Shown here: piece by piece, positions 47,757 to 47,957 of the stretch | Layout: every line of letters starts with the position of its first letter | Position numbering within the stretch: the stretch's first letter is position 1 | From: Microthyrium microscopicum | Lineage: Eukaryota | Length of the DNA: 64,000 nucleotides | Direction of reading: 5' to 3' | Assembly (NCBI GenBank): GCA_010405405.1 | Contig: MU004231.1 | Location: 670,153 to 734,152, forward strand | The notes under the pieces: generated by a model | Seen by the model: the letters and a program-made list of their open reading frames with translations, nothing else | The model's database searches: none | What the model was told of the DNA's origin: nothing | Translations under genes and position numbers: made by a program

Positions 47757-47957
47757 GGTGAGATGGCCGAGCGGTCCAAGGCGCTAGGTAAGAAACGCAC
47801 TAGATATTACTGTTTTCAACAGGGCACTAACTAACTCAGGTTAAGGTTCAGGTCTCTCCTCAACTTCCTAGTCATTTCATTATGGCGTGGGTTCGAATCC
47901 CACTCTCGTAAGCATTCTCCTGACTCTCATCAAGTATTTCACTAACAAATTAGATCA
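47757..47957 (+). tRNA. tRNA-Leu(AAG) in four exons (47757-47787, 47840-47846, 47866-47907, 47954-47957), with one canonical tRNA intron and two spliceosomal-type introns
   Basis: Joined exons give an 84-nt type II cloverleaf: GGTGAGATGGCCGAGCGGTCCAAGGCGCTAG|GTTAAGG|TCCTAGTCATTTCATTATGGCGTGGGTTCGAATCCCACTCTC|ATCA. Acceptor GGTGAGA/TCTCATC, anticodon stem CTAGG/CCTAG, loop TT-AAG-GT, T-arm GTGGG-TTCGAAT-CCCAC, A73. A and B boxes intact. Confidence 0.9.

Follow-up and report, generated by a model that had tools for sequence, protein, structure and literature searches.

The current view, as PMC12530127 presents it, separates two unrelated types of introns: spliceosomal introns, which reside in RNA polymerase II (Pol II) transcripts, and tRNA introns, which lie between positions 37 and 38 and are removed by the tRNA splicing endonuclease (TSEN). 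Here, we describe a tRNA-Leu(AAG) locus in which both types appear to stand side by side. The locus is part of a 64,000-nucleotide stretch of DNA from Microthyrium microscopicum (GenBank assembly GCA_010405405.1, contig MU004231.1, positions 670,153 to 734,152 of the forward strand), which was analyzed as a whole and is termed the 64-kb window; all positions below are counted from its first letter. Relatives of the mRNA-type intron in the Schizosaccharomyces pombe U6 gene occur in the U1, U2, U5, and U6 genes of Rhodotorula. For a tRNA, an artificial case is reported: Koehrer, Vogel and Domdey (EMBO J, 1990) are said to have provided a yeast RNA polymerase III (Pol III) tRNA gene with a pre-mRNA intron, which was spliced by the pre-mRNA pathway. 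Parallels also exist in nature. The S. pombe U6 gene carries an mRNA-type intron in a Pol III transcript, from which it is removed by the spliceosome, and the origin of this intron has been explained by reverse splicing into U6 itself (PMC5855946). In Cyanidioschyzon merolae and in archaea, multiple introns per tRNA gene are described, located at noncanonical sites including stems (PMC3728597).

The locus at 47757-47957 (+) consists of four pieces of a tRNA-Leu(AAG) that are parted by inserts of 52, 19, and 46 nt. The DNA evidence is strong that the two outer inserts are introns of the spliceosomal type and that the tRNA gene holding them is otherwise intact. On this basis, we are inclined, by a modest degree, to regard the locus as a genuine nuclear gene for tRNA-Leu(AAG), from a fungus that resembles filamentous ascomycetes, with one tRNA intron and two spliceosomal GT-AG introns. 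That it specifies a natural tRNA which would need both eukaryotic nuclear splicing systems, i.e. the spliceosome twice and then tRNA endonuclease plus ligase, is a proposition for which we consider the chances to be even.

Results

Anatomy of the tRNA-Leu(AAG) Locus

Only one tRNA-like locus was found in the window by the Rfam tRNA model and by ARAGORN, and all of its parts lie on the + strand. The first tRNA piece (e1, 31 nt, 47757-47787) comprises the 5' strand of the acceptor stem and the D arm and continues into the 5' strand of the anticodon stem as far as CTAG; it aligns to the Rfam tRNA model. It is followed in the anticodon stem by the first insert (i1, 52 nt, 47788-47839), which starts with a GTAAGA donor, contains two overlapping CTAAC motifs (47827-47835), and ends with a CAG acceptor. 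The short second piece (e2, 7 nt, 47840-47846) supplies the final 5' base of the anticodon stem, U32, U33, the anticodon AAG, and G37. The second insert (i2, 19 nt, 47847-47865) separates it from the third piece (e3, 42 nt, 47866-47907), which holds position 38, the 3' strand of the anticodon stem, a long variable arm, the T arm, and the four bases with which the 3' strand of the acceptor stem begins. This strand is interrupted between positions 69 and 70 by the third insert (i3, 46 nt, 47908-47953), with a GTAAGC donor, an ACTAAC sequence (CTAAC at 47942-47946), and a TAG acceptor. The last piece (e4, 4 nt, 47954-47957) contributes three acceptor bases and the discriminator A73. The lengths of the four pieces add up to 84 nt, and none of the pieces is decayed as judged from the Rfam alignment and ARAGORN. 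Everything that had been stated in the initial annotation on the sequence of the locus was recovered in the window at these coordinates.

The second insert is of the tRNA-endonuclease type. It is short and sits at the canonical site between positions 37 and 38, and its third-last base (A, 47863) is able to pair with U32, as the rule for TSEN substrates has it. ARAGORN itself called a 19-nt intron at this place once i1 and i3 had been removed, just as the initial annotation had proposed.

Intact A and B boxes, A73, and a downstream run of seven T had likewise been noticed before, and all of these elements could be located. The A box, placed by its motif, lies in e1 (47764-47774) and the B box in e3 (47890-47900), the latter being the sole full B-box match in the 64-kb window. 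Together with the T run downstream, these internal boxes make up the arrangement of a gene with a type 2 Pol III promoter. The spacing between the A and B boxes is 126 bp, a distance that Pol III should tolerate. A 3' trailer of 19 nt (47958-47976) connects e4 with the T7 run (47977-47983), a likely Pol III terminator. From the start of the gene to the T7 run, the sole stretch of at least four T is a T4 in i1 (47813-47816). The T7 run starts 19 nt past e4, and it would lie 65 nt past the 3' end if the locus were read as a tRNA with a single intron. Thus, the position of the terminator, with no run longer than T4 before it, fits e4 as the true 3' end.

Intron-like Signals of the Two Outer Inserts

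The outer inserts i1 and i3 were compared with introns elsewhere in the window using a strict motif, GTAAG-N(10-90)-ACTAAC-N(1-25)-YAG, on both strands. This motif occurred four times. Two of the four occurrences were i1 and i3, which share the strand of the tRNA at a distance of 120 nt. The expected number was 0.64 (mean of 100 dinucleotide shuffles of the window, both strands; maximum, 5). The other two matches, 50-51 nt long, are located at 31832-31881 (+) and 52410-52460 (-). They were deduced to be real coding introns because their removal joins open reading frames (ORFs) of 200 and 128 codons. A looser scan, which required an open frame over the joint, returned 23 candidates representing ~16 distinct introns. 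Most of these ORF-supported local introns measured 46-59 nt, and their branch A preceded the 3' end by 9-12 nt. The corresponding values are 52 nt and 9 or 5 nt for i1, and 46 nt and 8 nt for i3. The two outer inserts therefore show the donor, branch site, acceptor, and local length range of spliceosomal U2-type GT-AG introns in the strictest form of the motif. The GTAAG donors, ACTAAC branch sites, and YAG acceptors reported in the initial annotation are thus real and above chance, and its remark that the outer inserts match neighboring mRNA introns in size holds as well. It is well supported by these comparisons that i1 and i3 are indistinguishable in size and signals from the short mRNA introns of this genome.

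The borders of i1 are formed by a near-repeat, AGGTAAG / AGGTTAAG, and the apparent donor of i1 closely resembles the anticodon loop of Leu-AAG. As a consequence of this near-repeat, the i1 cut can slide from -2 to +2, giving five equivalent deletions with the same product.

A 12-nt perfect inverted repeat relates the branch-site region of i1 (47825-47836, CACTAACTAACT) to 48078-48089, which lies past the gene by 240 nt; chance would probably account for this repeat (E ~2.8).

Effect of Removing the Inserts on tRNA Quality

If nothing is removed and the natural 5-bp anticodon stem (CTAGG / CCTAG) is kept, the locus has A at position 33, AGA as the anticodon, and G1 opposite A72. These defects were already listed in the initial annotation; they were confirmed by reading, and the G1.A72 mismatch also appears in the ARAGORN drawing. 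ARAGORN without intron mode found nothing at the raw locus. In intron mode, it called a Leu(aag) tRNA with one 73-nt intron and an anticodon stem shifted by one base; base 26 was dropped, and G1.A72, G2-U, and U3-G were accepted. With 77 nt looped out as an insert, the raw locus scored 29.2 bits in the Rfam tRNA model, whose cut-off is 29. The earlier expectation that tRNA finders would miss or mis-call such a gene was therefore borne out with regard to the mis-call, namely a poor one-intron tRNA-Leu, but only in part with regard to an outright miss, because Rfam and ARAGORN in intron mode both report it.

The joined 84-mer was called tRNA-Leu(aag) by ARAGORN, with U33, a 7-nt anticodon loop, the anticodon AAG, a long variable arm, 7 of 7 acceptor pairs, and A73. 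Stepwise raising of the ARAGORN threshold showed that the raw locus was accepted up to 100%, the form without i1 up to 105%, the form without i1 and i3 up to 110% (the 19-nt intron being called), and the form without all three inserts up to 120%. A class II tRNA-Leu cloverleaf was obtained solely after removal of i1, i2, and i3, in agreement with the 84-nt product predicted in the initial annotation. A high score for the spliced form alone had also been predicted; the raw locus passes too, but marginally (29.2 versus 29 bits in Rfam; 100% versus 120% in ARAGORN).

RNA-library Contigs Related to the Locus

Two sequencing runs with small word shares, X1 and X2, were compared with the region. X1 was deduced to be RNA of the same species because its contigs showed zero differences and contained a spliced joint (49241/49356). 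The latter also served as a control for the detection of joints, as the corresponding mRNA intron (49242-49355) was seen spliced. X1 contigs do not cover 47585-47934 and are thus silent either way on expression there. One X1 contig (record 3), 4416 nt long and at depth 135, has at its end a stretch of 48 nt that matches 47935-47982 with three differences; beyond 47982, to about 47996, there is partial likeness only. This match implies that the genome contains, at another place, a paralogue of the 3' region from the end of i3 through e4 and the trailer to the T run, and that this paralogue terminates a 4.4-kb transcript.

From X2, a freshwater metatranscriptome, came a single 163-nt contig (depth 3.6) with adapter at both ends, which is colinear with 47769-47907 and retains i1 as well as i2. 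The differences that could be located number 11, with 8 substitutions and 3 indels, and every one falls in 47794-47822, in the interior of i1. No located change touches the donor, the branch and acceptor stretch (47823-47839), e2, i2, or e3. If the events are independent, the probability that within i1 (52 nt) all of them fall in these 29 nt is 5.7e-4. No neighboring gene was matched in X2, so its source is probably another organism or a paralogue. The same layout is thus present in a second source: that of i1 is no assembly accident and persists while the interior of the insert changes. Should the trailer paralogue and this metatranscriptome relative be further copies of the gene, a small gene family kept across species would be at hand.

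The X2 fragment stops exactly where e3 ends, at 47907; next come a single A and the adapter. In the window, 47908 is G, and e4 begins with A. This end was rejected as evidence, as a splicing intermediate (the free 5' exon of i3), an i3-less copy, a G-to-A variant, or chance would all fit.

Neighboring Features

The tRNA locus lies between two + strand genes, whose X1 RNA contigs end at 47584 and begin at 48387, and short introns occur in the genes adjoining it, which seem to be of a filamentous-ascomycete kind. The upstream gene, which resembles genes for Ser/Gly-rich membrane proteins, contains a predicted 59-nt intron at 46465-46523 (+) (GTAAGT ... CTGAC ... TAG). X1 contigs end at 46464 and begin at 46524, exactly at the borders of this intron, with depths of 1369 versus 51. 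Downstream, a MYND-zinc-finger-like gene (ORF 48477-49265) has a 114-nt GT..AG intron at its 3' end (49242-49355, +), which was confirmed by a spliced X1 RNA contig. Further upstream, a methionine-aminopeptidase-2-like gene, named from its translation, occupies 44131-45228 (+); it consists of at least two reading-frame blocks and encodes an acidic and lysine-rich N terminus. A tRNA-Ile(tat) with a 135-nt intron at 48149-48377 (-), called by ARAGORN at a lowered threshold, was dismissed as a false positive on account of its mismatched stems.

Discussion

A Putative Route to the Mature tRNA

If the locus is a genuine tRNA gene with one tRNA intron and two spliceosomal introns, its expression may proceed as follows. 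RNA polymerase III would use the A and B boxes and produce a transcript of ~230 nt reaching up to the T7 run. The spliceosome would then take out i1 and i3 with the 3' trailer still attached; the trailer would be required as the 3' exon of i3. Both the anticodon stem and the acceptor stem, which RNase P, RNase Z, and tRNA endonuclease measure, would form only after i1 and i3 have been removed. Subsequently, RNase P and RNase Z would trim the ends, and tRNA endonuclease and ligase would excise i2. Finally, CCA would be added, and A34 would be deaminated to inosine as in other eukaryotic Leu-AAG tRNAs. Action of the spliceosome on a Pol III precursor appears feasible because of the precedent of the S. 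pombe U6 intron (PMC5855946). The engineered yeast tRNA gene that Koehrer and colleagues reportedly examined would speak for feasibility as well. The tRNA matured by two unrelated machineries that was put forward in the initial annotation is thus supported in its DNA-level layout, whereas we infer that the locus is transcribed and that both machineries cut its RNA.

Alternative Explanations

A number of observations weigh against this interpretation. Three points had escaped the initial annotation: the one-intron call that ARAGORN makes, a 10-nt copy of the 3' end of the tRNA in i3, which leaves room for a duplication or a pseudogene, and the repair of the acceptor stem by other deletions. A natural tRNA gene with spliceosomal introns was not found in the literature searched, which largely left subscription journals outside, and the exact phrase "spliceosomal introns in tRNA" occurred in 0 papers of that literature; PMC4090602 does not mention the spliceosome, and the genome papers that came into question deal with mRNA introns only. 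The prior for such a gene is low because no natural case was found there. Related loci were looked for among metagenome contigs with a pattern of the end of e1, the donor, and e2, and with a looser pattern of the D loop, the end of e1, and the donor among metagenome, prokaryote genome, and viral contigs; all of these scans gave 0 matches. Repair of the tRNA is not peculiar to the GT-AG cuts either. Among deletions around i1, 17 of 1296 (8 products) passed ARAGORN at 110%, as did 14 of 1017 deletions at the 3' end (6 products), and several other deletions repair the acceptor stem as well, so that repair of the 3' end is not unique. At 100%, ARAGORN in intron mode detected 957 of the 1296 deletions and is thus too permissive for the deletion scans to single out GT-AG cuts. 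Because ARAGORN is a weak test of uniqueness, the strength of the case rests on tRNA-independent motifs lying exactly where their removal repairs the tRNA. As to the RNA libraries, no spliced joint or lariat over the tRNA locus was seen in the contigs of X1, which lack cover of 47585-47934, or of X2, whose contig retains i1 and i2. The X2 contig may stem from DNA carry-over although the library is an RNA library. Its 11 located changes could represent one complex mutation, which would weaken the argument from conservation of the signals, and 2 of the 10 substitutions counted were unplaced and could fall in e1, the donor, or e3.

Several of these points would be accommodated by a pseudogene, i.e. 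a tRNA-Leu(AAG) gene with a 19-nt intron that was broken by local insertions or duplications while intact Leu-AAG genes elsewhere supply the tRNA and the intron-like signals lie idle. We regard this as unlikely on balance, albeit with a claim to serious consideration. A 52-nt insertion flanked by AGGTAAG / AGGTTAAG would account for i1 and for the direct repeats at its borders. At the 3' end, an insertion or duplication of 21 nt with ACTCTC on either side would have stranded the original end of the tRNA downstream; i3 does contain (47923-47932) a perfect 10-nt copy of the 3' end of the mature tRNA, which extends over the joint of e3 and e4. Only 10 of 5000 shuffles of i3 shared 10 nt anywhere with the tRNA. 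The tRNA that the GT-AG deletion yields is restored equally well by taking out 21 nt, either 47908-47928 or one of six equivalent registers, for which no GT-AG logic is needed. The copy and this deletion class point to local duplication or insertion, and together with the repeats at the i1 borders they suggest that the inserts arose either through local duplication or through an insertion that duplicated its target. In the predicted minimum-energy fold of the unspliced RNA, the acceptor stem is built from this copy and the 5' acceptor strand, and the i3 donor is left in a loop. As a speculation, this may alternatively be a way in which the precursor is held in a tRNA-like fold with the donor single-stranded. 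The trailer region, present at least twice in the genome (record 3 of X1), and the missing splice joints would also agree with a dead copy. Longer internal duplications were not found: local alignments between tRNA pieces and inserts were no better than those of shuffles (p = 0.11 to 0.99), with the sole exception of a trivial overlap of two segments that had been defined with 13 common bases. A short interspersed element (SINE) or dispersed pseudogene was considered as well. There is no second copy of the tRNA locus within the 64-kb window, the tRNA pieces are undecayed, and one paralogous match, from an RNA contig of the same species, concerns 47935-47982. A broken gene would, however, demand that two sets of donor, branch site, and acceptor arose by accident on the right strand, with the right spacing and at the points of repair, even though the expectation for the motif in 128 kb of strand is 0.64. 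It would also have to explain why all four tRNA pieces are undecayed, why the T7 run lies 44 nt from the 3' end of the internal copy but 19 nt from e4, and why the X2 relative retains the signals despite a changed i1 interior.

Two other explanations differ in the machinery that they invoke. The locus might be embedded in a spliced noncoding host RNA made by Pol II, from which the spliceosome removes i1 and i3 before RNase P and RNase Z release a tRNA that would still be spliceosome-dependent. Spliceosomal introns normally reside in Pol II transcripts (PMC12530127), and the signals of i1 and i3 match the strength of those in mRNA introns. Against this improbable arrangement stand the intact A and B boxes and the T7 run 19 nt past e4, which fit a Pol III unit; moreover, the neighboring X1 mRNA contigs fall short of the locus, although absent cover proves nothing, and no host transcript was seen in the contigs of X1, with its gap in cover over 47585-47934, or of X2. 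An account by endonuclease alone would regard the locus as a tRNA-Leu(AAG) whose one intron, of 73 nt, occupies the 37/38 site (47794-47866); the anticodon loop of this tRNA would be the T-AAG-A of the apparent i1 donor, and its 3' end would be at 47911. Known machinery would suffice in this case, and both ARAGORN in intron mode and Rfam call the raw locus. The product, however, would be poor: base 26 is lacking, the anticodon stem is shifted by one base and contains G-U, position 32 is G, and the acceptor stem has the G1.A72 mismatch as well as G2-U and U3-G wobbles. It passes just at the ARAGORN default, compared with 120% for the fully spliced form, and is close to the Rfam cut-off. Its terminator would be 65 nt away. 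In addition, both full sets of intron signals would be left unexplained, as would the 44 unchanged nt of X2 (47823-47866) beside 29 heavily changed nt. We therefore consider endonuclease-only maturation highly improbable.

Implications

If a genuine gene with two spliceosomal introns is at hand, the spliceosome would routinely accept an uncapped Pol III tRNA precursor, and the supply of a decoding tRNA would be coupled to spliceosome activity. The locus would further provide a second independent case, beside U6, that bears on the entry of introns into noncoding RNA genes, with the repeats at the i1 borders and the exon copy in i3 as clues to their origin. It would also expose a blind spot of tRNA finders, in that such a locus is missed or called a poor long-intron gene and any family of this kind would be mislabeled by standard annotation. 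Even if the locus should prove to be a dead copy, it would be a striking case of intron-like signals readily assembling around the AGGTTAAG anticodon loop of Leu-AAG.

Comparison with Known Systems

Like S. pombe U6, the locus would be a gene for a small stable Pol III-type RNA that is interrupted by GT-AG introns. Unlike U6, which belongs to the catalytic center of the spliceosome, a tRNA has no such proximity to the splicing machinery; the present gene would carry two introns of this kind plus a tRNA-type intron, and it is known from its DNA sequence. With canonical intron-containing tRNA genes, which depend on TSEN and ligase, it shares the 19-nt i2 at the 37/38 site, the class II tRNA-Leu body, and the A and B boxes. 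It departs from them in i1 at 30/31 (movable to 32/33) and i3 at 69/70, both situated in stems and both furnished with spliceosomal signals. Several introns in a single tRNA gene, stem positions included, are a feature in common with C. merolae and archaea. The introns of these organisms form bulge-helix-bulge structures that are cleaved by tRNA endonuclease. A crude scan for this geometry (two 3-nt bulges, a 4-bp helix, and flanking helices) found no more than 6 of 8 pairs for i1, and these in shifted registers, whereas i3 and the alternative 21-nt insert each reached 5 of 8. Bulge-helix-bulge excision was set aside as unsupported. Instead of such a structure, i1 and i3 carry the GTAAG, CTAAC, and YAG elements.

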